Source: Bdellovibrionota bacterium
Lineage (GTDB): Bacteria; Bdellovibrionota_C; UBA2361; OMII01
NCBI GenBank assembly: GCA_044360195.1
Contig: JBIKKT010000002.1
Span: forward strand, 31,247-95,246
Reading direction: 5' to 3'
DNA length: 64,000 nt
Shown in pieces: positions 1,453 to 39,122 of this stretch. Position 1 is the stretch's first letter; each line of letters opens with the position of its first letter. The notes beneath the pieces were generated by a model, which was given only the letters and a program-made list of their open reading frames with translations, had not been told where the DNA came from and did no database searches. Both the position numbers and the translations under genes were made by a program.

Positions 1453-2940
1453 ATGGCTGTGCACATCTTTCCAACCGATAATCCTGCTATCGGCACGATT
1501 GAAGTTCCCGGCAATGTAGGCTCAGCGATAACAGTTATCGGCACCCCTACGATTCGATCTGCCTTCGATCCGAAGTGCCTCGAGCAGGCGATAAACACAC
1601 GCACAGCGCCCGGCGTAGAGTCGATAGTCATCAATCCGGATGCGCACGCGGGATACGGAGCACCTATAGGGTGCGTACTCGCCTCTCGGACGCATGTGTA
1701 TCCTGGCCCCATCGGAGTCGACATTAAATGTTCGATGAGTCTTCTACAACTTGATCTTCCTGCTGAAAAAATTGCAGAGAAGCAAGTTCGGCGTAAGCTT
1801 ATCCAGGCTATCGGTGATCGTATTCCGACTGGGCCGGGGAAAGGGGCTCGTTCTGTGCCGCGCGGCAAGGTGTTTGACGATGCGGTAGCACGAGCTGCTG
1901 TCATTGGCGGTGCTACTCAAGAGGTATGCGAAAAACTCGGTATCCCGATTGCCTGGACCGAGCGGTGTGAAGATGCGTTCCATCCGGGACACGATGGTAC
2001 TCAAGCTGCGCTTGAAGAGCGGTTAAATACGCTGGTCAAGAGCGGCGTCATCAGGAATCTATCTGACAAATTTCATCAGCTTGGATCGTACGGTGGTGGT
2101 AACCACTTTGGCGAGTGCAGCACCGTGTCCATCGAGGACAGCGCAAGGGCAAGAGAGATAGCTCAAGTATTTGGTCTTCGCGATGGACATGTCGCCTTTC
2201 TGTCACACTGTGGCTCGCGTGGTTTCGGTAATGCACTGGCGCGCAATCAGTTTTCTCTGCTTTATGATCTCTTTTCTCAGCGTGGTGTGCCTCTGCCTGG
2301 TGGTGACAAGGAGCTAGTGTACGCGCAGCTCGGCACACCGGAAGCTGATGCTTACCTTGATGACATGGCACTCGGTGCTAATTTTGCAACGGTCAATCAC
2401 TTGGTAATAAATGCGCTGGTGCTTGAAGCCTTTCAGGAGGTTTTCCCGGGTGTGACCGGCGAGCTGGTGTATTTTATCAGTCACAACATCGCGCGTCGGG
2501 AGCCGCTTGATGGTGAGATGGCGTGGGTGCACCGCAAGGGAGCTACACGGGCCTTCCCGGCCGGTCATCCAGGCTTGAAGGGGACGCGCTATGAATCCAC
2601 GGGTCATCCAATTCTCCTTCCAGGAAACCCACGGGATGGGTCAGTGGTGATGGTAGCGGAAGAGGGGGCGCGTGTGAGTTGTTACAGCGTGAACCACGGC
2701 GCCGGTAGGGCGCTTGGACGTCGTGCTGCATTTCGAACCTTGGATCAGAGCGCCGTAGATACAGAACTTGACCGGTTGGACATCTTGAGCAACTGCAGGC
2801 AATACCCGCTCGATGAGGCGCCGGATGCATACAAAAATTTTAAAGAGGTTCTGCGTTCGGTTGAAACTGCGGGGCTCGCCTCGACAGTCGCACACCTCAA
2901 GAGCCGATTTGTCTTGAAGGACGCTGCCGAGGCGGAGTGA
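1453..2940 (+). CDS. rtcB: RtcB family RNA-splicing ligase (3-phosphate/5-hydroxy RNA ligase)
   Basis: 495-aa ORF with RtcB signature blocks NPDAHAGYGAPIGCVLA, GVDIKCSM, SHNIARRE and NHGAGR. RBS-ATG context aaggtagctATG. Confidence 0.8.
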   Translation: MAVHIFPTDNPAIGTIEVPGNVGSAITVIGTPTIRSAFDPKCLEQAINTRTAPGVESIVINPDAHAGYGAPIGCVLASRTHVYPGPIGVDIKCSMSLLQLDLPAEKIAEKQVRRKLIQAIGDRIPTGPGKGARSVPRGKVFDDAVARAAVIGGATQEVCEKLGIPIAWTERCEDAFHPGHDGTQAALEERLNTLVKSGVIRNLSDKFHQLGSYGGGNHFGECSTVSIEDSARAREIAQVFGLRDGHVAFLSHCGSRGFGNALARNQFSLLYDLFSQRGVPLPGGDKELVYAQLGTPEADAYLDDMALGANFATVNHLVINALVLEAFQEVFPGVTGELVYFISHNIARREPLDGEMAWVHRKGATRAFPAGHPGLKGTRYESTGHPILLPGNPRDGSVVMVAEEGARVSCYSVNHGAGRALGRRAAFRTLDQSAVDTELDRLDILSNCRQYPLDEAPDAYKNFKEVLRSVETAGLASTVAHLKSRFVLKDAAEAE

Positions 2941-3774: not shown

Positions 3775-4137
3775 TTAAGCGCACAGCGCTCGTATTCGTC
3801 GCAGCAATGAGAGCATAAAACCAGACGAGCACAGGTATGGGAGGAGACTTTTATTGAGGCGGTCTGCTTGTACGGCAACTGTAACTAGGCGCTTGATCTC
3901 TTCGAGCGTGGCGTGCTCAAGCTGCTGTGGATTCTGCAGATAGGGCCGAGCCTCGTCTACATGTGCAAGCCAGTCAAAATCAGGTATCGCCAGGCTAGTC
4001 CTTTCCAGCTCGCATTTTATTTCACTAACCAGGGGGAGGTATTCTCCCGTAGTCACGTAAATATTCTGCGCTTCCTGGCAGTCGCCGGTTTCCAGCGACT
4101 CGATCAGATTAAAGAGTGAAGCGAACGGCTCCGACAT
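3775..4137 (-). CDS. hypothetical acidic protein
   Basis: 120-aa ORF with no recognisable motifs. A GGGGCG-loop-CGCCCC hairpin lies just downstream on its strand (3703..3721). Confidence 0.3.
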   Translation of the reverse strand: MSEPFASLFNLIESLETGDCQEAQNIYVTTGEYLPLVSEIKCELERTSLAIPDFDWLAHVDEARPYLQNPQQLEHATLEEIKRLVTVAVQADRLNKSLLPYLCSSGFMLSLLRRIRALCA

Positions 4138-4191
4138 GAGGTGGTAATTAAAGACGAGTTAGGCCGGAAAACTTACAGGAATATGGGGATA

Positions 4192-4264
4192 AGCTAACTG
4201 TGGGATTCGAACCCACGACCTGCGGTTTACAAAACCGCTGCTCTACCAACTGAGCTAAGTTAGC
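4192..4264 (-). tRNA. tRNA-Thr (anticodon TGT)
   Basis: Folded by hand on the minus strand. Acceptor GCTAACT/AGTTAGC, D-arm GCTC-AGTTGGTA-GAGC, anticodon arm GCGGT-TTTGTAA-ACCGC (U33, TGT, A37), T-arm GTGGG-TTCGAAT-CCCAC. No encoded CCA. Confidence 0.8.
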
Positions 4265-4526
4265 ATATTTCTTTACTACCAACTGCTTGTCCTCCGTAGC
4301 CTTGGCGAAGGAGGAAGCTAAGTTAGTAAACTGTAAACGAAACCCTACAGTAACTCGCACCTTTTTTCAATCGTTCAGCTCTATTGGGGTATGATTCTGC
4401 CCGGTTTACCTGTCCGAGGGGGTCATGCGACAGACAAAAAACTTACAAACTAGCCAACAGTTACAAGCCGCCGTATTTACTTGAAGAACGTAATTTACCA
4501 TAATGCCGCCCCATTGGAAGCTGTGT

Positions 4527-4602
<76 letters not shown>

Positions 4603-4610
4603 TTTTGTTG

Positions 4611-4742
4611 CCTACAACAACTTGGCTGCGCCAAGATTGTTGTGACGGGCAGGAGGTCCTGCACCCGTGTTTGATACCTACAGCAACTTGGCTGAGCCAA
4701 GATTGCTGTGACGGGCAGGGGGTCCTGCACCCGTGTTGCTGC
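4611..4742. repeat. tandem direct repeat, two copies of 66 nt, each with two stem-loops
   Basis: Unit A 4611..4676 and unit B 4677..4742 are about 90 percent identical. Hairpin 1 is ACAACAACTTGG-loop-CCAAGATTGTTGT and hairpin 2 is CGGGCAGG-AGGT-CCTGCACCCG. The A/B differences in hairpin 1 are base-pair compensatory (A-T to G-C). Confidence 0.6.
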
Positions 4743-4782
4743 GGGGGTAGCAATCGGCTTTCAATAAAGACCACTCTCAAGT

Positions 4783-4868
4783 GGTGAGGTGCCCGAGTGG
4801 CTAAAGGGGGCAGACTGTAAATCTGCTGGCTCCGGCCTACGGTGGTTCGAATCCACTCCTCACCACCA
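4783..4868 (+). tRNA. tRNA-Tyr (anticodon GTA), long variable arm
   Basis: Acceptor GGTGAGG/CCTCACC, D-loop CCGAGTGGCTAAAGG, anticodon arm GCAGA-CTGTAAA-TCTGC, long extra arm GGCTCCGGCCTACGG, T-loop TTCGAAT. Encoded CCA. Confidence 0.85.
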
Positions 4869-5414
4869 TTTTTCTCCTCCTCTGTAATAGCACGACATGT
4901 CGCTAGCCGGTTTTGGCCGACTGTTTTTGGACCGCGGACCTTCCAGGTCCGCTAGATATTTCAGCCAGCACGGAAGTACCGGGCGAAGCTAAACCTTCGC
5001 GGTCCCGGGGGCAGTCGCCAGCATGTTACTAGTAGCACTGCATTTTACGGTTGCGATCTTGCTCTCACCAGATACCGACCTTCCTGGGCCGGCTGGGGTA
5101 TGCTGTCCTCAGTGAAGCTGATCTCAAAAGAATCTGCGAGGCCAATGTTGCGAAAGCCTGCGCGCATAGCCTAGCTTACACTCCAAACTGTGTCCCCATT
5201 CCCACCCCCACGGCTAAGCCTTCGGCTACTGCAACCTCCAAAGCTGGAGGGTAAGGTTAATAACGGAGATACCGCCGCCCGGGGATTTTTACATCATGCC
5301 AGATCTGTAAAGGATCACCTGAGACGGTACATTTGGGGGGTTTATGCCCAACTTCCCCCAACCCACACCCCAGTGTTCCAATTTCCCCCGAATGTGATAG
5401 CATCCCCCGCACTT

Positions 5415-5490
<76 letters not shown>

Positions 5491-5517
5491 TTCTAAACGC
5501 GCCATTCTAGAAGTAGT

Positions 5518-6621
5518 ATGAGTCTTCCCCATGATGATTGCGTAGTTTTGGCACCTACGGCGGGCGATTCCGCCGAAGCCCGGACCCGTTCGCCGCTCTG
5601 GATGGTGAGTCAGGAGCCTCTGCTAAACGACCTCGTAGTCTACCTTGCTGCTGTTCGTGAGCAATTCACACAAGGCCCCAGTAAAGAGCTTCAACTCGTA
5701 TTTTCGCGCAAACACCTCAAAGAGTGCCGCAAAGCGTTTGACCGCATGATACGGAAAGGGGAGGAGAGCCTTCACCGCCTGTGTGAGCTGTTGTGTGCAG
5801 CATTAGTCGGGCGATATCAGCTTCAAAGTGTAGTCATCGGAGATGTTCCAACCAGTGGGGAGCGCTTTACTCTTACACAACTCATCTCGCAACGAGATCT
5901 CTACTCTACTATCGATCTTGACCTCGGTAACCGCCAACTTCAAAAGCTTAGATACTTCGACGGTCAATCGTGGATCGCGCCAGCGCTTGTAGCGAATATG
6001 GTTGAGTACCAACCTGTTGAACCCAATAGCTTCGGTGTTTTTAAGCTTATCAGTCGCATTAAAGCTGAAGAAGAGCTCTGGAATAAGGTAGTCGACGAGA
6101 TATTCGGGCTGGATTCCCTTGTAAAGCGCGATAAGCAGCTTCGGCATTTGAGTCACTACGTAAAGGATATCTTTGGAATAAAGATAGTTGTTGGGTCTCC
6201 TGATGAGGCTGCTGCTCTACATGCTCACCTGACAGAACTAACGTGGTCGGATGAGGCGCTAAAACTGCATCAGGCCGAGGTCACCTCTGAAACGGTTAGC
6301 CTTGATTTCGTTGAAACAAAGAACTACCTGGCTGAGCACGAAAAGAGTAGTGGCTGGGAAGCCATTAAGTCGGTGGTGTTGTGGAACGCCCGTATGTTTG
6401 AGATCCAGATTCAGCCGCTCTCAAACTTCTGGCGCGAGCGAGAGCACCTTACCAGAGAGAGCCACACTGGATTTAAGAGTCGTCGTGAAGAGATCCGTCA
6501 GCAGGTTGCAGAGAGTATTCCGCTCTTTCGCTTCTACCAAAATCTGTTGCGCTGGCTTTTCCAGAATCCTGACGGACCGGCTCCGGTCTTCCCGGGGATC
6601 TCGGTTGCGGTATCCGAGTAG
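5518..6621 (+). CDS. RelA/SpoT-homolog (RSH) nucleotidyltransferase-domain protein (small alarmone synthetase-like, possibly toxSAS-like)
   Basis: 367-aa ORF starting 28 nt after tRNA-Trp. The central region carries the synthetase-fold motifs GVFKLISRIKAEEELWNK (compare RelQ GRVKSxESIxEK), KDIFGIKIVVGSPDE (the Asp beta-strand, compare DIAGLRII) and FEIQIQPLSNFWREREH (compare EIQIRTxxMDFWAxLEH). Extra N- and C-terminal regions of about 120 and 50 aa have unknown function. Confidence 0.5.
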   Translation: MSLPHDDCVVLAPTAGDSAEARTRSPLWMVSQEPLLNDLVVYLAAVREQFTQGPSKELQLVFSRKHLKECRKAFDRMIRKGEESLHRLCELLCAALVGRYQLQSVVIGDVPTSGERFTLTQLISQRDLYSTIDLDLGNRQLQKLRYFDGQSWIAPALVANMVEYQPVEPNSFGVFKLISRIKAEEELWNKVVDEIFGLDSLVKRDKQLRHLSHYVKDIFGIKIVVGSPDEAAALHAHLTELTWSDEALKLHQAEVTSETVSLDFVETKNYLAEHEKSSGWEAIKSVVLWNARMFEIQIQPLSNFWREREHLTRESHTGFKSRREEIRQQVAESIPLFRFYQNLLRWLFQNPDGPAPVFPGISVAVSE

Positions 6622-6671
6622 GTCGTTATAGCTACCCAAGCTATCCTTTGTGTTGCTTAAAGTAGTCAAAG

Positions 6672-6717
6672 TTGCAGGTACTTACGGGATTAAGTATACT
6701 TGAATTAAAAGTTCAAG
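6672..6717 (+). promoter_or_regulatory. candidate sigma70 promoter with adjacent inverted-repeat operator upstream of sufBCD
   Basis: TTGCAG (6672..6677), 17-nt spacer, TATACT (6695..6700). It is immediately followed by the inverted repeat CTTGAA-N7-TTCAAG (6699..6717). Confidence 0.35.
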
Positions 6718-6808
6718 ATTGTTACCCTGACTTATCCGTCGGGTTTACGTTAAATAAAAGCGCGTCGCGAACGGGACTTAGAGTCTGGAAGGCGGTAGTG
6801 TTAGGTAG

Positions 6809-8269
6809 TTGAAAGCAGATTATTCACATATGAGCACAGACATCTTAGACGATTTTACCAACCAAGATTACAAGTACGGGTTCTATACCGATATAGAGGC
6901 TGAGTCGGCCCCGCCTGGGCTTAATGAAGGTACCATCGCCTTTATATCTCAGAAGAAGAACGAGCCGCAGTGGATGCTCGATTGGCGCTTGAAGGCTTTT
7001 AAGACCTGGAAGGAGATGCAGGAGCCTCACTGGGCGTTCATCGGTTACCCGCCGATTGATTACCAAGATATCATTTACTACTCCGCTCCAAAGAAGAAGC
7101 AGGGGCCTGCTAGCTTGGACGAGGTGGATCCTGAGATCTTAAAAACCTACGAAAAGCTCGGTATTCCAATTCATGAGCAGAAAGCCCTCGCTGGTGTTGC
7201 AGTTGATGCGGTCTTTGATTCGGTGTCGGTAGTTACCACGTTCAAGAAACAGCTTGAGGAAGTCGGTGTCATCTTCTGTTCAATGTCTGAGGCGATTCAG
7301 AATCACCCAGAGCTTGTGCAGAAATATCTTGGCTCGGTTGTTCCACATTCTGATAACTTTTTCTCGGCGCTAAATTCAGCGGTCTTCACCGACGGATCGT
7401 TTTGTTACATACCGAAAGGTGTGCGATGTCCGCTTGAGCTCTCGACGTATTTCCGCATAAACGCCGCTAAAACCGGGCAATTCGAGCGTACCCTCATCAT
7501 CGCTGATGAGGGGAGTTATGTGAGCTACATGGAGGGTTGCACAGCGCCGATGCGAGATGAGAACCAGCTCCACGCGGCTGTTGTTGAGCTCGTTGCTTTC
7601 GGTGATGCTCAGATCAAGTACTCAACTATTCAGAATTGGTACCCAGGAGACAAGGAGGGCAAGGGCGGTATTTACAACTTTGTCACGAAGCGTGGTCTCT
7701 GCGCGGGAACCAATTCAAAGATATCGTGGACGCAGGTTGAGACCGGATCTTCTATTACGTGGAAGTATCCGAGCTGTATCTTGAAAGGTGACAACTCCGT
7801 TGGTGAGTTCTACTCAGTTGCTATCACAAATAACAAGCAGCAAGCAGATACTGGAACCAAGATGGTGCACATCGGAAAGAATACTCGTAGCACCATCGTT
7901 TCTAAGGGTATATCCGCTGGACGGAGCAGTAACGCCTATCGCGGCCTCGTGAAGATAATGAAGAGCGCAGATGGCGCGAGAAACTTCTCGCAGTGTGATT
8001 CGATGTTGATGGGGAATGAGTGCGGCGCGCATACCTTCCCTTACATCGAAGTGAAGAATCCAACCGCAAAGGTCGAGCATGAAGCGTCGACGTCGAAGAT
8101 CGGTGAGGATCAGATTTTTTATTGCAATCAGCGCGGCATCTCTACTGAAGATGCCGTGTCGATGATCGTTCACGGATTCTGTAAAGAGGTTCTCGCTGAG
8201 CTTCCAATGGAGTTCGCGGTTGAGGCGCGCAGGTTGCTTGAAATTAGCCTTGAAGGAAGTGTCGGATAA
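6809..8269 (+). CDS. sufB: Fe-S cluster assembly protein SufB
   Basis: Near full-length collinear similarity to SufB ([91 protein letters not shown]). The start is either TTG 6809 or ATG 6830 (MSTDIL). Confidence 0.9.
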
Positions 8270-10577: not shown

Positions 10578-10799
10578 ATGGGCGAACAGGTAGTGCAGGG
10601 AACGTCGGGTTCGATAGTTACGCGCACAAAAGACTACTTGGTTGGAAGCGTAGCGGAGCTCAAAAAGGTGCAGTCTCCCTCGCATCAGGAAACTCTGCGG
10701 ATGACCGGAGGGGTTATTTTGATAATCGTCTTTATTTCGTTGAGCCTTTTCTTTATCGATCTCGTTTGGAATTGGCTGATGTCTAAGATGATCGGCTAG
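10578..10799 (+). CDS. secE: preprotein translocase subunit SecE (single-TM short form)
   Basis: 73 aa with one C-terminal TM (GGVILIIVFISLSLFFIDLV), placed immediately upstream of nusG. Confidence 0.75.
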   Translation: MGEQVVQGTSGSIVTRTKDYLVGSVAELKKVQSPSHQETLRMTGGVILIIVFISLSLFFIDLVWNWLMSKMIG

Positions 10800-10823: not shown

Positions 10824-11375
10824 ATGGAAGCAACTACCACAGAGCAAAAGATGAATTGGTTCGTAGTACAGGCATACGCCGGCTTTGAAATGAAAGCCAA
10901 GCAGGCGCTTGAAGAGCGGATCCGCCTCAATAACCTTACCCACCTCTTCGGCGAAGTTCACGTGCCGCAAGAGACCGTAGTGGAGCTCGTGAAGGGTCAG
11001 AAAAAGACGTCCACTCGCAAATTCTTCCCCGGATACATGTTGGTGCAGATGGTCCTCAACGAGGAGACATGGCACCTGGTAAAGGAGACCCCTAAGATCT
11101 CAGGCTTCTTAGGTGATGCAACAACTCCGCTACCGTTAGCCGAGGAAGAGGTACAGCGTATCTTCAGTCAGGTGGAGGAGGGGGCGGCTTCTCCACGTTC
11201 TAAGATGAGCTTCGAACAGGGAGACGCTGTTAAGGTCATCGATGGTCCGTTTGCTGAGTTTAACGGCACTATCGAGGAAGTTCGTCCTGAGAAGGGTAAG
11301 GTCAAGGTGTTGATAAGCATCTTCGGTCGTGCTACTCCGGTCGAGCTTGATTTCATGCAGATTGAAAAAGCTTAG
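10824..11375 (+). CDS. nusG: transcription termination/antitermination factor NusG
   Basis: NGN domain (WFVVQAYAGFE) and C-terminal KOW (GDAVKVIDGPFAEFNGTIEEV). Confidence 0.9.
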   Translation: MEATTTEQKMNWFVVQAYAGFEMKAKQALEERIRLNNLTHLFGEVHVPQETVVELVKGQKKTSTRKFFPGYMLVQMVLNEETWHLVKETPKISGFLGDATTPLPLAEEEVQRIFSQVEEGAASPRSKMSFEQGDAVKVIDGPFAEFNGTIEEVRPEKGKVKVLISIFGRATPVELDFMQIEKA

Positions 11376-23923: not shown

Positions 23924-24006
23924 AAGCCGTTGACCCCCTTACCGATAAGACAGGGGTGATGCTCGCTGGTTTAAGGCGCGAGCATTCGTGCCGCTTGGGA
24001 GGGGAT

Positions 24007-25692
24007 ATGAGCGAGTCAACAAAGCAGAAGGTTTCAATAGCAAGCGTTGTTTCAGACGCGCAAAAGATTAGAGATCGGCAAAAAGCTAACCAGCAGCAGG
24101 CTGACCAAACATTCACCCAATCGAATGCATTCGCCCAGATAATGCTTAATGATAGCCTTTCGCCCGAGCAGAAGCGTGACGCGATGGTTGCTCAGCTTGT
24201 CTTCTCCGCAGAGGCAACCAAGGAGCAAAACCGCCAGAAGCTTGATGCCTTTGGCGCCTTTAAGGAGTATCTGCAGGAGCAGCGCAAGATTCTAAACAGG
24301 GAGGGGATTAGACTTCAAGACACCGAGGCGTTCGCCGAATTGCAAAGCGTTGTTGATGAGATGACGAAAGCTAGCCTTGATTTTCAAGAGCGGGCGAAGC
24401 CTCTGATTGAGATATTGTCGGCAGTCTTTGAGATTAGAAAACAAGATAAGATCCCCGATGTCTACAGAGAGATACAGAAAGATAAGGAGTGGTCAGAGGA
24501 GCAGAATAACCGACTTATTGAGCTCGACGATCAGCTTAAAAAATTAGTAGCCGAGAACGAACGGTTGGAGCGATGGAAGGCACAGCTGTCGCAGGATAAG
24601 TCTCTTTTTGGTTTTGGTCCGACTAAGCGCAGCGCCCTTCAGCAGATCGCTCAGATTGACGCAGTCGATAAGGTAAAGACGTCCCAGGCTCTAGCAGATA
24701 CGCTAGAGCATATTCAGAATCAAAAGAATGTAATCGCAGCCGGTCGTAGCTCGGAGAATCCAGAGCTTGTTGAGCAAAAACGCATTTTACGCGAGTTCTT
24801 GAATCTCTCTAAGGAAGAAAATCGAGATAGACAGAAACGTCTCATAGAAGCTGCAGTTACGTATGTCGATACTTCCGATGCTCGGCTGAAGAGCGTTCTT
24901 GGCACCCTTGGACGTCTTGGTAAGCATGCAGAGGTCCTCTCTGATACCAATGGAATATTGAAGAACATGCACCTCGTTATGGATGAGGCGCTGAAGGATG
25001 CAGCTAAGTGCAACGATGACCTTAAACGCAACCTTTCAGAGCAGCCTGGAGATGAATCCGCGATTGCTCGCATGACCCGTGAGGAGAAGCTCGCCGATTT
25101 GAACGAATGCATCGGTCGCTCCGACGACCACGCCGTTGATGTCGCAAATTCAGTTGGTGGGCTCACCAAGCATGCAGTTCAGATACAGGCTTACAAAGAT
25201 ACGATCCGTAATGAAAGCGGTAGTACCAAGAGGCTGCACCTCGAAGGAGTATCGCAGATGGGCGAGCAGCTAATGTCTGTCATTAGTGCTATTTCGTCTG
25301 CGGCAACAACTGAATCACGTTCGCTAGCGGCGGATAACTTCGCTAAAATGGCGGCGCAGAATCAGACTATTATTTCGCAAGAGGTGGTTAAAAATGCCAC
25401 CACAATCGACCTTGAAGCGCAACAGATCTCGCGGCTAGTAGGTGAGCTGCAAGACTATGGTGATGTGTTAAAGGCTTCAAGTGATATAGCGAATGCCGGC
25501 TATGCTCGTATGCGCGATACGATTGGAGCGATTCGAAAGGTATCAGGCGCTGTTCAAGGTGCCATCCAGGACTTAGTCGAGGACAGGGCCGAGGCGCAGA
25601 TCGCGAGCGGAGAGCCAGCCTCCCAGGTTGAGGGCGGAGAAAAGGCACAGACTGGCTTCGTTAATCCTTTTGATAAGATTGGAAACTCATAA
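24007..25692 (+). CDS. long coiled-coil protein of unknown function
   Basis: SD GGGAGGGG before the ATG at 24007 (the ORF track starts at a GTG at 23956). About 560 aa, almost entirely predicted alpha-helical and heptad-rich (Q/E/K/L). No TM segment and no enzymatic motif. Confidence 0.45.
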   Translation: MSESTKQKVSIASVVSDAQKIRDRQKANQQQADQTFTQSNAFAQIMLNDSLSPEQKRDAMVAQLVFSAEATKEQNRQKLDAFGAFKEYLQEQRKILNREGIRLQDTEAFAELQSVVDEMTKASLDFQERAKPLIEILSAVFEIRKQDKIPDVYREIQKDKEWSEEQNNRLIELDDQLKKLVAENERLERWKAQLSQDKSLFGFGPTKRSALQQIAQIDAVDKVKTSQALADTLEHIQNQKNVIAAGRSSENPELVEQKRILREFLNLSKEENRDRQKRLIEAAVTYVDTSDARLKSVLGTLGRLGKHAEVLSDTNGILKNMHLVMDEALKDAAKCNDDLKRNLSEQPGDESAIARMTREEKLADLNECIGRSDDHAVDVANSVGGLTKHAVQIQAYKDTIRNESGSTKRLHLEGVSQMGEQLMSVISAISSAATTESRSLAADNFAKMAAQNQTIISQEVVKNATTIDLEAQQISRLVGELQDYGDVLKASSDIANAGYARMRDTIGAIRKVSGAVQGAIQDLVEDRAEAQIASGEPASQVEGGEKAQTGFVNPFDKIGNS

Positions 25693-25703
25693 CACAGAGA
25701 CGG

Positions 25704-27899
25704 ATGAGCCCCATGGCAGATCGAGTGAACAACGTAACCGTTGACGTCCTTACTCGCGGCTCAGATATTCTGGCGCGGTGCCCGAGCTTTGCGCTAGTCG
25801 GAAGAGACTCTGAGCTGGCCGAGCTCTCGACCGTGCTTATGAAGCTTAGGCGAAGAAACCTTATCGTCACTGGCCGCGGTGGAGTCGGAGTGAGCGCGAT
25901 TGTGCTGGGGCTCCAAGCAAGCAAGAAAAATTTAACCACTCCGGTTGATATCGTGGGAATGCGATTTTTCTGGTTGGATACAGACCGACTGTTTGAATCA
26001 GGGGATAACCGCGCTATTCACGCGGCTTTTGAGCGATCACGACAGACGCTTGCTGCAACTCCGTCTGCTGTTCTAGTAATCGAGGACAGCGCAGATTTTG
26101 TGCGCTCGGCGAGCACAAATGGATGTACGAGTTTGATCCACGGCTTGATGGGCGACTTAAAAGCACAGAAGTACCAGGCTATCTTGGAGACCAGCGATGA
26201 GGGGCTCGGAGAGATCCTGAAATGTGACGGTGACCTGCTCGAAAACTGTACACTCTACGAAGTTAAAGAGCCCGATGCTGAAAGTCTGCGATTGATCGTA
26301 GCACAATCAAAGAACGAACTTGAACGGCACCACAGAGTCAGGGTAAGCGAGGGCGCTCTTGAGGCGGCGGTGCAATTGACCGAGAAATATAAACTCACCG
26401 AGTTACGAGCGCAGCCAGATGCTGCCATCACACTCCTCGATCTCGCGTTGACGCATTTGTGTCGCGACGCGCATATTACTCCCCTGAATATCAAGGAGCT
26501 AAGGGATAACATGTTGAATGCTCCGGCGGTAGAAGCCGAGCAGTTGCAAGGTCAGCTGGCGGCGGCTGAAAAGGAGTGGGATGATCGCCAGCGCCTGGTG
26601 CGCGCACTTTATCGTGAGATAAGTGACGGAGAGGAACAGATTCGACTTCTCCAGCAGACAGTTGTTTCCCTCCGAGACCAGCACACTGCCCGGCTTGGGG
26701 AGCTTAATCGAAATAGGGACACCGCGTCAGGTCAGGCAAGCGGGGGACCACTTGAGGTGTATCGACAGGCAGACACTCCAGAGATGGCTGATGTAAAGAG
26801 GAAGATCTCAACGCTCGAATCGTTGGTAGCAGATGCCACCAGAAAATATGAGCAAAAGGTCGCAGAGGTCTATGCGGGTCTGTCTCTGCACGAATCCCAC
26901 GTGCTAAAATCCTTTAGCATTCTGTCCGGTATTCCTGTTGATAAGCTCACCGAAAACGAGCGCGGTAAGCTGCGAGGCTTACACGAGGTTCTGTCGGCGC
27001 GTGTAGTAGGTCAGCTGGAGCCAACTACCGAAGTAGCGAAAGCTGTAAAGCGTGCCCGCCTTGGGCTAAAGTTGCCGAATAAGCCGTCTGGCACCTTTAT
27101 GTTTCTTGGACCATCTGGGGTAGGTAAGACAGAGCTTGCAAAGTCTTTGGCTGAAGCATTATCTGTTCCCCTTCTACGATTCGATATGTCCGAGTATATG
27201 GAGAAGCATGCTGTTGCTAAGCTTATTGGAGCTCCTCCGGGGTACGAAGGGTATGAGCAGGGAGGAATCCTCACTAATCAAGTTCGTCGAAATCCTTACA
27301 GCGTTGTTCTCTTTGACGAAATCGAGAAAGCTCACACTGATGTTTTTAATGTAATGCTACAGCTTCTTGATGATGCGCGACTAACCGATAGTAGGGGACT
27401 AACGGCCTCCTTCAAGGATACTATCGTTATTATGACCACGAACATCGGCACTCCTCACTTCCTTGACGAAGCCGTCCCGTTTGAGGAGTCAAAAAAGCTA
27501 GCGCTCGCCGATTTGCGAGCCCAGTATCGCCCCGAATTCTTGGGGCGCTTCGGTGGTAACATCTACGCATTCCAGCGTCTTGGCTTTGATGTTTTAGAGG
27601 CGATTGCCCGCAAAGAAGTGCGCCGTATCAACGAGCTCGTTCAGCAGCAGGGGATATCACTTGTAATGGAGCAGGAAGATATTCAGCAGATGGTCAAGGG
27701 GGTCTATGTGGCCCGCGAAGGTGCACGAAGTATTCTAGGTTACCTTGATCGGAGCCTCACCTCCGCTCTGGCAGATCTTATTCTGCGCGAGGGAGGAATG
27801 ACCGGCGAGGTTGTAGCGCGCTTTGATACTGAGTCACGTAGCATACTCATAGACCCTCGTTCAGGTCCGAGAGCTGTGCCGAAGGCTCACGGTGCTTAA
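25704..27899 (+). CDS. ClpB-like AAA+ ATPase lacking the N-domain, with degenerate NBD1 and intact NBD2
   Basis: NBD2 is near-canonical ClpB (FLGPSGVGKTELAK, GAPPGYEGYEQGG, VVLFDEIEKAHTDVFNVMLQLLDDARLTDSRG). NBD1 aligns but has Walker A GRGGVGVSA (no Lys) and Walker B LVIEDSA in place of FIDELH. A coiled-coil M-domain is present. Only about 35 aa precede NBD1. Confidence 0.7.
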   Translation: MSPMADRVNNVTVDVLTRGSDILARCPSFALVGRDSELAELSTVLMKLRRRNLIVTGRGGVGVSAIVLGLQASKKNLTTPVDIVGMRFFWLDTDRLFESGDNRAIHAAFERSRQTLAATPSAVLVIEDSADFVRSASTNGCTSLIHGLMGDLKAQKYQAILETSDEGLGEILKCDGDLLENCTLYEVKEPDAESLRLIVAQSKNELERHHRVRVSEGALEAAVQLTEKYKLTELRAQPDAAITLLDLALTHLCRDAHITPLNIKELRDNMLNAPAVEAEQLQGQLAAAEKEWDDRQRLVRALYREISDGEEQIRLLQQTVVSLRDQHTARLGELNRNRDTASGQASGGPLEVYRQADTPEMADVKRKISTLESLVADATRKYEQKVAEVYAGLSLHESHVLKSFSILSGIPVDKLTENERGKLRGLHEVLSARVVGQLEPTTEVAKAVKRARLGLKLPNKPSGTFMFLGPSGVGKTELAKSLAEALSVPLLRFDMSEYMEKHAVAKLIGAPPGYEGYEQGGILTNQVRRNPYSVVLFDEIEKAHTDVFNVMLQLLDDARLTDSRGLTASFKDTIVIMTTNIGTPHFLDEAVPFEESKKLALADLRAQYRPEFLGRFGGNIYAFQRLGFDVLEAIARKEVRRINELVQQQGISLVMEQEDIQQMVKGVYVAREGARSILGYLDRSLTSALADLILREGGMTGEVVARFDTESRSILIDPRSGPRAVPKAHGA

Positions 27900-27911
27900 T
27901 CGTCGAATTGT

Positions 27912-28736
27912 ATGAGTAGCAGAGATGATCCGACTTTAAAGCGGGCTCGCGAGGAGATGGAGGGTGTATACTCTCGCGCCCGCAAAATCATCGAGGAACC
28001 GCGCCGAAGTAGCACGACAGGTCAGCAAGAGAAGAATGTCCTGCAAGCGCTCGCTGAGATGCAGGAAAATCTGAATTTCTTCAGCCGTCTTCTACGTGGA
28101 GGTCGCGAAGTAGTTGTTGGGGTGTGGCAGCAGGCTCTCGCTCCAGTGTGGAGGTTCGTTGCGCCTCCGCTACGCTTTATCGGACGAAACTACATGCGTG
28201 TGTGGAGTTCCGTGGTGTTTGTTGTCGATCCGTTGACCCGGGAGCGGAGCATTTCTCGAACACGCTCTACGCTGATGCTTGTAGCCACTGTTTTATGTCT
28301 ATCGATATTTACGGATACTCGCTTGGGCGAGGCGGCGCGCTTTTTTTCAACTGAGCCGCTATGTGACTCGGTCTTGATTGCGACATCGCTTAGGACTGAG
28401 GTGTTTTACCTCAGCCAATCAGAAGAAGTAGACCCAGAGCAAAACGTGCACGCAGTTCGTGGTTGTCGATCACGGGGAGAGTGCTCAGAGCTTGACGCAG
28501 TGTACTTTCGAGTGCGACCGCGGTTGGCTCACGACGTATGGAAGCTGTTCGCGTATGGCAATCCAGTATATGTGCCCGACCACGTAGTTGCGCCGATAGC
28601 ACCCGGTATCAACGAGTGTCATGTAACGTATTATGGATATCGGATGACCGCTTCCTGGATAGCTCGAATTTTACGATCCCTTCAGGTCTATCCAACCCTG
28701 TTAGAAGTTAAGTGCTCCCATCTGAATGCTGGCTAG
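27912..28736 (+). CDS. hypothetical protein with a central hydrophobic segment
   Basis: 274 aa, 12 nt after the ATPase gene. One hydrophobic stretch LMLVATVLCLSIF and a Cys/His/Tyr-rich C-terminus (NECHVTYYGYRM). Confidence 0.35.
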   Translation: MSSRDDPTLKRAREEMEGVYSRARKIIEEPRRSSTTGQQEKNVLQALAEMQENLNFFSRLLRGGREVVVGVWQQALAPVWRFVAPPLRFIGRNYMRVWSSVVFVVDPLTRERSISRTRSTLMLVATVLCLSIFTDTRLGEAARFFSTEPLCDSVLIATSLRTEVFYLSQSEEVDPEQNVHAVRGCRSRGECSELDAVYFRVRPRLAHDVWKLFAYGNPVYVPDHVVAPIAPGINECHVTYYGYRMTASWIARILRSLQVYPTLLEVKCSHLNAG

Positions 28737-37925: not shown

Positions 37926-39122
37926 ATGTCAACTAAGAAATTTGAAAGAACAAAAGCGCACGTAAACGTGGGAACCATCGGTCACGTAGACCATGGTAAG
38001 ACCACAACAACAGCAGCCCTCGTGTCTGTTCAGGCAGCAAAGGGTTTGGCAACCGTTAAGTCGTACAAAGATATCGCTAAGGGCGGTACCGTGCGCGACG
38101 ATTCAAAGACGGTTACCATTGCTTCAGCTCACGTTGAGTATGAAACAGCAACTCGTCACTACGCTCACGTAGATTGCCCGGGTCACGCTGACTACGTTAA
38201 GAACATGATTACTGGTGCTGCTCAGATGGACGGCGCTATCCTCGTAGTAAGTGCGTCGGATGGACCGATGCCACAGACTCGAGAGCACATCCTCCTTGCT
38301 CGTCAGGTAGGAGTTCCTAAGATCGTTGTTTTCCTTAACAAGGTTGACACAGTTGATGACCCCGAGCTTCTCGACCTCGTTGAGATGGAAGTTCGTGACC
38401 TCCTTGCTGAGTACGATTTCCCAGGTGCTGAGACCCCGGTCATCCGTGGTTCGGCTCTCAAGGCTCTTCAGGGTGAGCAGAGCGATATCGGCGTAGGCGC
38501 TTTCGATAAGCTCCTTGCTACAATCGATGAGTACATCCCAGTTCCACAGCGCGATGTTGATAAGTCGTTCCTTATGCCGGTTGAGGATGTATTCTCAATC
38601 GCAGGACGCGGTACTGTAGCTACAGGACGTGTTGAGCGCGGTCGCATCAAGGTTGGAGAGGAAGTTGAGATCGTTGGAATTCGCGACACTCAGAAGACCG
38701 TTGTTACAGGCGTTGAGATGTTCAAGAAGCTCCTCGATGAAGGACAGGCAGGTGACAACGTTGGATGTCTCCTCCGTGGTCTCAAGCGTGACGATGTTGA
38801 GCGCGGACAGATCCTCTGCCAGCCTGGCAGCGTTAAGCCTCATAAGAAGTTCAAGGCAGAGGCATACATCCTTAAGAAGGAAGAGGGCGGACGTCATAAG
38901 CCTTTCTTTTCTGGATACCGACCTCAGTTCTTCTTCAGAACAACTGATGTAACCGGATCGATCAAGTTGCCTGATGGTGTTGAGATGGCTATGCCTGGTG
39001 ACCACATCAATCTTGATGTTGAGCTCTATCAGCCAATCGGCATCGAGAAGACTCTCCGATTTGCTATCCGAGAGGGTGGTAAGACGGTTGGTTCAGGTGT
39101 TGTAACTGACATCGTCGAGTAG
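37926..39122 (+). CDS. tuf: elongation factor Tu
   Basis: [17 protein letters not shown] and NKVD. 398 aa. Confidence 0.95.

Follow-up and report, generated by a model that had tools for sequence, protein, structure and literature searches.

A stretch of 64,000 nt from a Bdellovibrionota genome (contig JBIKKT010000002.1; below, the window) contains, close to its left end, a gene for a 367-amino-acid (aa) protein that is a divergent member of the superfamily of RelA/SpoT homologs (RSH) and resembles the small alarmone synthetases (SAS). We suggest that this protein is probably an active, stand-alone, SAS-like ATP-dependent pyrophosphokinase with a housekeeping role, that it belongs to a very divergent RSH subfamily, and that it most likely makes (p)ppGpp or a near analogue. 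Two profiles of the family are used below, A1 for the full-length alignment and A2 for the core (residues 172-336 of 19 diverse members). Genomes or loci carrying homologs have L-numbers, of which L001 is the closest genome (96 % aa identity), and homologous proteins have P-numbers. Model confidence is given as the predicted local distance difference test score (pLDDT). The gene and its parts are as follows.

5518..6621, plus strand: gene for the 367-aa divergent RSH (small-alarmone-synthetase-like) protein; ATG start, stop codon included
5518..5589, plus strand: variable low-confidence N-terminal tail, residues 1-24; unconserved in A1, pLDDT 31-42
5590..6036, plus strand: family-specific N-terminal module, residues 25-173 (~150 residues); invariant A1 columns, model pLDDT 77-95
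6037..6456, plus strand: RSH synthetase (SYNTH) catalytic core, residues 174-313
6055..6087, plus strand: R-x-K helix motif for binding of the ATP phosphates, R180-I-K182 ... K190; counterpart of SRVK...NK in YwaC by alignment, invariant in both A1 and A2
6166..6183, plus strand: D217-IFGI-K222, Mg2+-binding Asp strand ("syn2") with Lys for the usual Arg; aligned to D-IAGV-R of YwaC/RelP, D and G invariant
6352..6369, plus strand: G279-W280-E-A282-I-K284, acceptor-binding loop ("syn3"/G-loop); aligned to G-Y-R-S-L-H of YwaC/RelP
6400..6414, plus strand: E295-I-Q297-I-Q299, catalytic E-x-Q strand ("syn4") with Gln for the usual Arg; aligned to EIQIR of YwaC/RelP, E and Q invariant
6457..6618, plus strand: C-terminal helices and final strand, residues 314-367; modeled as helices 317-333 and 335-349 and strand 361-366

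The 367-aa open reading frame (ORF) is a real gene under strong purifying selection, far beyond what chance would produce. Gene callers predicted an identical gene in three other public assemblies, and the existing labels are "ppGpp synthetase/RelA/SpoT-type nucleotidyltransferase" in IMG and "hypothetical protein" at NCBI. Among 5.8 billion proteins, 831 homologs were found at E <= 1e-3; many are 65-75 % identical, and those from other phyla still share 54-59 %. The ratio of nonsynonymous to synonymous substitution rates (dN/dS) is 0.038 relative to L001; relative to all other genomes, the synonymous sites are saturated and the amino-acid identity is 55-75 %. When the same genomes of the clade are compared, the protein ranks below SufB, SufC, and NusG (84-93 %) and above SufD (52-60 %) in conservation. 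It behaves as an ordinary vertically inherited chromosomal gene with core-gene-like evolution. Horizontal acquisition was considered and rejected, since the GC content of the gene equals that of its flanks and searches of 2.9 million viral contigs, 50,697 phage records, and 72,556 plasmids turned up no relatives.

The assignment to the superfamily is not new, since automated annotation already names an RSH-type nucleotidyltransferase. The Pfam model RelA_SpoT (PF04607) matches residues 180-305 with E 3.3e-4 (21.3 bits). It also matches 28 of the 29 aligned family members at E < 0.01 (best 9.8e-7), and a precomputed match is present in about a quarter of the listed homologs. The signal is consistent family-wide, and the 367-aa sequence alone is sub-threshold. 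Searches of the PDB with the whole protein, either as a single sequence or as the full-length profile A1, gave chance matches only, for instance to the neurotensin receptor and to pentatricopeptide repeat (PPR) proteins. Only the trimmed and more diverse core profile A2 reached RSH structures, namely Bacillus subtilis YwaC/SAS2 (6fgk, E 4.4e-7), Staphylococcus aureus RelP (1.4e-5), and the RelQ-type 2be3 (3.5e-3), followed by RelA, SAS1, and RelSeq. The first non-RSH entry has E 0.24, and three further SpoT/RelA entries, at E 0.66, come after non-RSH ones. Structure comparison found the RSH synthetase fold, with RSH structures aligning over only ~130-160 residues of the 367-aa protein. The closest relatives by sequence and structure are RelP, RelQ, and Rel, not Tas1 or FaRel2, and CapRel is also a good structural match. 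Pfam and NCBIfam gave no match to HD hydrolase, TGS, or ACT domains. The first-pass annotation had described a single-domain RSH synthetase-like protein without a hydrolase domain, and the PF04607 signal, the A2 core profile, and the fold bear this out.

The same annotation had picked out three sequence blocks, GVFKLISRIKAEEELWNK (residues 173-190), DIFGIKIVV (217-225), and FEIQIQPLSNFWREREH (294-310). All are present in the translation, and the alignment to YwaC/RelP identifies them as the true R-x-K, Asp, and E-x-Q catalytic motifs. In addition, HMMER aligned K268-N-Y270 ... K276 to KDY...PK of YwaC/RelP. Even the diverse set A2 shows no variation at R180, K182, K190, D217, K284, E295, and Q297, and W280 is found in at least 90 % of family members in A1 and A2. 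The ATP/Mg2+-binding and catalytic residues are thus intact, since they align to those of YwaC/RelP and are invariant in A1/A2. By analogy with RelP/RelQ, the protein would bind ATP-Mg2+ through R180/K182/K190 and D217, with W280 stacking against a purine nucleotide acceptor, K268/K276/K284 holding the acceptor phosphates, and E295 serving to move the beta,gamma-pyrophosphate of ATP onto the 3'-OH of the acceptor. The enzyme would then act as a housekeeping signaling protein, not as a toxin, with (p)ppGpp or a close analogue as the most likely product.

Outside the catalytic core, the family has features of its own. Residues 25-173 have no sequence match in Pfam, NCBIfam, or the PDB. This N-terminal module carries motifs that are invariant in A1 across phyla (SPLW, ERF, D127-x-Y-x3-D-x-DLG-x-RQL-x-KL, W152, and Y164-Q165), and it is confidently modeled as helices and additional strands. 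Inside it, an insertion of ~75 residues separates the first long helix from the R-x-K strand. From the layout of RelQ/RelP, we take helix 64-96 to be the N-terminal helix of the small synthetases and residues ~97-173 to be the insertion. Another insertion, of 18 residues, follows the Asp strand in the alignment with YwaC/RelP. The C-terminal region retains the invariant residues S315, H316, F319, R323, R327, and P335-L-F (A1). The conserved N-terminal module probably serves as an addition for regulation or for selecting the substrate.

These features set the family apart from the characterized RSH enzymes. RelP (SAS2, YwaC) and RelQ (SAS1, YjbM) of Firmicutes are only 16-17 % identical to the 367-aa protein. 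They are ~210-230 aa long, whereas the protein described here has in addition the ~150-residue N-terminal module with its ~75-residue insertion, and the 18-residue insertion. In contrast to their distribution, the 367-aa family occurs in Bdellovibrionota, Chloroflexota, Acidobacteriota, Myxococcota, and Eremiobacterota. Rel, RelA, and SpoT, the long RSHs, possess HD hydrolase, TGS, and ACT domains, none of which was matched here. Moreover, the HD hydrolase domain of long RSHs is all-helical, whereas the N-terminal module has beta strands and does not align to the N-terminal region of Rel (150 of 331 residues aligned).

The gene is preceded by a cluster of tRNA genes with a candidate promoter.

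5415..5490, plus strand: tRNA-Trp(CCA) with encoded CCA, 27 nt before the ATG (ARAGORN; Rfam 73.6 bits)
4783..4868, plus strand: tRNA-Tyr(GTA) (ARAGORN, Rfam)
4527..4602, plus strand: tRNA-Thr(GGT) (ARAGORN, Rfam)
4476..4504, plus strand: sigma-70-like promoter match TTTACT-17-CATAAT just before tRNA-Thr-GGT; sole plus-strand match within 4000-7000
4192..4264, minus strand: tRNA-Thr(TGT), divergent (ARAGORN, Rfam)

The ORF had been described as starting 28 nt past the CCA end of tRNA-Trp; the ORF itself is upheld by its translation and motifs, and the distance is corrected to 27 nt. Usually tRNA-Trp directly precedes the secE-nusG block. Here the downstream order is sufB (6809..8269), sufC, sufD, secE (10578..10799), nusG (10824..11375), rplK, rplA, rplJ/L, and rpoB/C, with the secE-nusG-rplK-rplA block ~4 kb downstream of the gene, after sufBCD. 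It was therefore reasonable to place the gene at the usual rpmG/secE spot, since it stands together with sufBCD between tRNA-Trp and secE-nusG.

This arrangement is a property of one clade. The gene is preceded by tRNA-Trp in each of the 26 Bdellovibrionota-clade loci for which upstream sequence exists, usually together with Tyr, Thr-GGT, and the divergent Thr-TGT, and the clade loci continue downstream with sufB-sufC-sufD and then nusG. The spacer between the 3' end of tRNA-Trp and the likely start codon measures 13 nt in L001, 27 nt here, 45 nt in L024, mostly 66-125 nt, and up to 209-535 and ~900 nt. None of the loci L031-L060, which come from other phyla, has the tRNA cluster; two of them show a stray, oddly long opposite-strand ARAGORN call. 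Since loci of other phyla lack the cluster, the linkage is synteny inherited within one clade, not a trait of the family. Adjacency to tRNA genes is uninformative about function, and the idea that the linkage is functionally telling is unsupported, given its confinement to this clade and the spacers of 13 to ~900 nt.

The search for partner genes covered the best 80 of the 262 loci that encode a relative among 185,579 species genomes (L001-L080). Clustering of the neighboring ORFs of at least 80 aa in these 80 genomes and the window revealed no gene shared across phyla beside the homologs. Outside the clade, the neighbors vary by lineage and include a response regulator, a cyclophilin-like protein, a pyrroloquinoline quinone (PQQ)-type dehydrogenase, an ABC permease, a short-chain dehydrogenase/reductase (SDR), and cytochrome c. 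In the window, no ORF was found in the 27-nt upstream gap or the 187-nt downstream gap of the gene.

The 27-nt gap leaves no room for a promoter, so in this genome the mRNA would most likely arise by read-through from the tRNA cluster plus processing; the spacers of most relatives leave room for a separate promoter. The tRNA cluster and, through read-through, the gene have a candidate promoter in the match at 4476..4504; the stretch 4473-4526 around it is conserved at 74-87 % in seven genomes (L002, L007, L008, L010, L011, L021, and L026). Co-transcription with four tRNAs had been proposed. Judging by the short gap, co-transcription is plausible, but at most three tRNAs could share the transcript with the gene, because Thr-TGT, one of the four tRNAs that ARAGORN and Rfam detected in the window, is encoded on the minus strand. 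The 187-nt spacer before sufB contains the palindrome CTTGAA-N7-TTCAAG (6699-6717), which sits in a block of ~35 nt (6695-6732) upstream of sufB with 87-94 % conservation in about a dozen related genomes. This block probably serves the suf operon as an operator or promoter, and its conservation suggests that sufBCD has its own control region. A functional link between the gene and sufBCD was rejected, as the association is clade-restricted and sufB has this upstream palindrome.

We favor the housekeeping (p)ppGpp-type reading because the nearest relatives are RelP, RelQ, and Rel and because the genomic evidence is of a non-mobile and non-toxic gene. Several observations weigh against it. The PF04607 score of 21.3 bits is lower than the curated gathering score of 27 bits, so the search suggested by the first-pass annotation gave a match, though one below the cut-off, and no NCBIfam model matches the 367-aa protein. 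The sigma-70 consensus scan yielded one site with 2.1 expected by chance, no better than chance. On the acceptor side, the (p)ppGpp synthetases have a stacking Tyr, SxH, and EIQIR where this family has Trp, AxK, and EIQIQ. Accordingly, the signatures of guanosine 3'-pyrophosphokinases (Tyr + SxH, A/G-x-R, and E-I-Q-I-R) are not matched, the corresponding positions being W280, A282-x-K284, G-I-K222, and E-I-Q-I-Q299, and (p)ppGpp as the product is a guess because of these deviations. The stacking Tyr (Y128 in FaRel2) is highly conserved or invariant among SAS enzymes (bioRxiv 10.1101/2021.04.30.441581). On the other hand, these are conservative changes (one aromatic residue for another, and Lys in place of Arg or His), so that function may persist despite them.

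The altered pocket leads to the alternative of an active RSH-fold pyrophosphokinase with a non-guanine acceptor, whose housekeeping signal would be (pp)pApp or some other nucleotide pyrophosphorylated at the 3' position, with the Trp, AxK, and Gln pocket and the N-terminal module setting a new specificity. We consider this possible but doubtful. In its favor, syn3 and syn4 deviate from the consensus of (p)ppGpp synthetases at positions that do not themselves vary between phyla, the N-terminal module carries invariant motifs, and the family is closed: an exhaustive profile search of 1.84 billion cluster representatives retrieved only 215 clusters (50 % identity) at E <= 1e-3 and did not reach canonical RSHs. 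The guanosine-recognizing SxH is distinguished from the GxN (syn3), RYT (syn2), and YH (syn4) signatures of adenosine 3'-pyrophosphokinases such as the (pp)pApp synthetases Tas1/Apk2 (PMC12226406), and none of the latter signatures was found at the aligned positions of the 367-aa protein. Tas1/Apk2 are, moreover, toxins with an immunity gene, whereas the 367-aa protein does not belong to a secreted or polymorphic toxin, and no immunity-like gene is adjacent to its own. Since exchanging the acceptor motifs does not by itself switch specificity (PMC12226406), we treat these motifs as a lead and not as a predictor.

The first-pass annotation had also hinted at a toxic SAS (toxSAS) that pyrophosphorylates tRNA 3'-CCA ends like FaRel2, PhRel2, and CapRel. 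The tRNA neighborhood would then echo the substrate, and either an antitoxin that has escaped notice or, in the manner of the fused CapRel, the N- or C-terminal extension of the protein itself would restrain the enzyme. The structural similarity to CapRel agrees with this, and tRNA-targeting toxSAS lack a sequence signature (bioRxiv 10.1101/2021.04.30.441581). However, toxSAS were discovered by the criterion of a conserved two- or three-gene operon with an antitoxin (PMC7229694), whereas the survey of 80 genomes and the window for an antitoxin-like neighbor revealed no conserved bicistronic partner; upstream there is a tRNA, and downstream a 187-nt spacer and then sufB with its own conserved element. 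PADLOC gave no match for the protein, no relatives occur in phages, plasmids, or viral contigs, and the tRNA linkage is not seen outside one clade. The toxSAS use a conserved, highly basic CCA groove (PMC11559606), whereas the present protein is acidic, with a whole-protein isoelectric point (pI) of 5.9 (5.5-6.9 in the family), pI being only a proxy for the groove. The identity of 50-59 % across phyla and the low dN/dS also disagree with a toxin. Defense and toxin genes are usually fast-evolving. We therefore regard a tRNA-modifying toxin as improbable. Least probable of all, in our estimate, is a catalytically silent RSH-fold protein serving as a nucleotide- or partner-binding regulator. Distant relatives of eukaryotic origin have lost the R-x-K, Asp, and Glu residues, which indicates that the scaffold can persist without catalysis, but in the bacterial family no catalytic residue varies across four or more phyla, as one would expect of an active enzyme. 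Thus a housekeeping SAS-like pyrophosphokinase is the interpretation that we prefer.

By sequence similarity, the family appears as a closed, distant, and narrow branch of RSH synthetases. Among the best 80 loci, metagenome-assembled genomes of Bdellovibrionota have 65-96 % identity, and the other lineages (50-59 %) are Anaerolineales, Caldilineaceae, Herpetosiphonaceae, Roseiflexaceae, Vicinamibacterales, other Acidobacteriota, Myxococcota, Bradymonadales, and Eremiobacterota/Vulcanimicrobiota. We found no evidence that the branch has been characterized before, as there is no NCBIfam model for it and no solved structure within reach of the full-length sequence. The RSH tables of Atkinson 2011 list no SAS for Chloroflexi, and their Acidobacteria rows hold only a divRel[HS] entry (Candidatus Koribacter).

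Many carrier lineages, namely Bdellovibrionota, Myxococcota, Bradymonadales, and Herpetosiphonaceae, are known or suspected predators. Since the family is found in Anaerolineales and Vicinamibacterales too, the overlap with predatory lineages may be a coincidence.

Nine distant homologs (P0173, P0176, P0181, P0185, P0189, P0193, P0199, P0221, and P0244) are 354-777 aa long, six of them at least 512 aa. They keep the N-terminal module and the fold motifs and have lost R-x-K, Asp, and/or the catalytic Glu. The six whose sequences were read have N-termini resembling signal or transit peptides, and for one of them, P0199, the source is the transcriptome of a marine eukaryote (MMETSP). No domains turned up when the long N-terminal extensions of distant homologs were scanned with Pfam. 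Judging from these sequences, the nine proteins look like eukaryotic pseudo-enzyme descendants, and they may correspond to the unplaced diatom "divRel" of PMC3153485. A distant bacterial branch is represented by P0145 (E 1.7e-60 to the family profile; L082 232-9441, and L083). It is encoded in a tight array of four genes with 4-nt overlaps, for proteins of 771, 224, 408 (RSH-like), and 97 aa, directly upstream of a gene whose product exceeds 2300 aa and has an eCIS_core domain. This toxin- or effector-like context differs from that of the gene at 5518..6621.

Other observations concern the surroundings of the gene. The 546-nt spacer between tRNA-Tyr and tRNA-Trp (4869-5414) contains C-rich tracts, and its counterparts in relatives range from ~40 nt to more than 1.8 kb. 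No hidden tRNA or RNA family was detected in it by ARAGORN or Rfam (E <= 1), and its folding z-score of -2.07 is unremarkable. L001 shares two pieces of this spacer, 91-95 % identical and ~900 nt apart. The position between tRNA-Tyr and tRNA-Trp is often occupied by tuf; in the window, tuf is presumably the 398-aa ORF at 37926..39122 after a putative fusA, judging by size and position only. Upstream of the tRNA cluster, at a distance of 1.6 kb, is a gene for an RtcB RNA ligase (1453-2940, plus strand; Pfam E 4.9e-98). A functional link of our gene to RtcB is unsupported: two minus-strand genes (Ysc84-like and DUF6508) lie between, and an RtcB-like cluster is present in only four of ~30 clade loci. 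Several non-ribosomal genes occupy 23956-28736, between rpoC and the rpsL/rpsG-fusA-tuf block; among them, ORFs of 578 and 274 aa without a Pfam match flank a 731-aa ClpB/AAA_2-type ATPase.

The bacterial stringent response has the RSH enzymes at its core, and small RSHs were recently shown to make (pp)pApp or to modify tRNA. The family described here is a conserved, chromosomal, partner-less branch from mostly uncultured lineages, with intact catalytic residues, an invariant but non-canonical acceptor pocket, and a unique N-terminal module. Its interest rests on the altered pocket and this module, not on the adjacency to tRNA genes. A bolder view, which we put forward only tentatively and hold less likely than the housekeeping (p)ppGpp-type reading, is that of an antitoxin-free housekeeping RSH lineage, re-tooled in its pocket (Trp/AxK/Gln) and N-terminal module for a non-(p)ppGpp signal or another 3'-OH acceptor. 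Such a lineage would be patchily held by Bdellovibrionota, Myxococcota, Bradymonadales, Herpetosiphonaceae, Anaerolineae, and Vicinamibacterales, with dead descendants in marine protists. If the product is (p)ppGpp, the family would merely lengthen the list of housekeeping small alarmone synthetases; if it differs from (p)ppGpp, the family would provide a new nucleotide signal.

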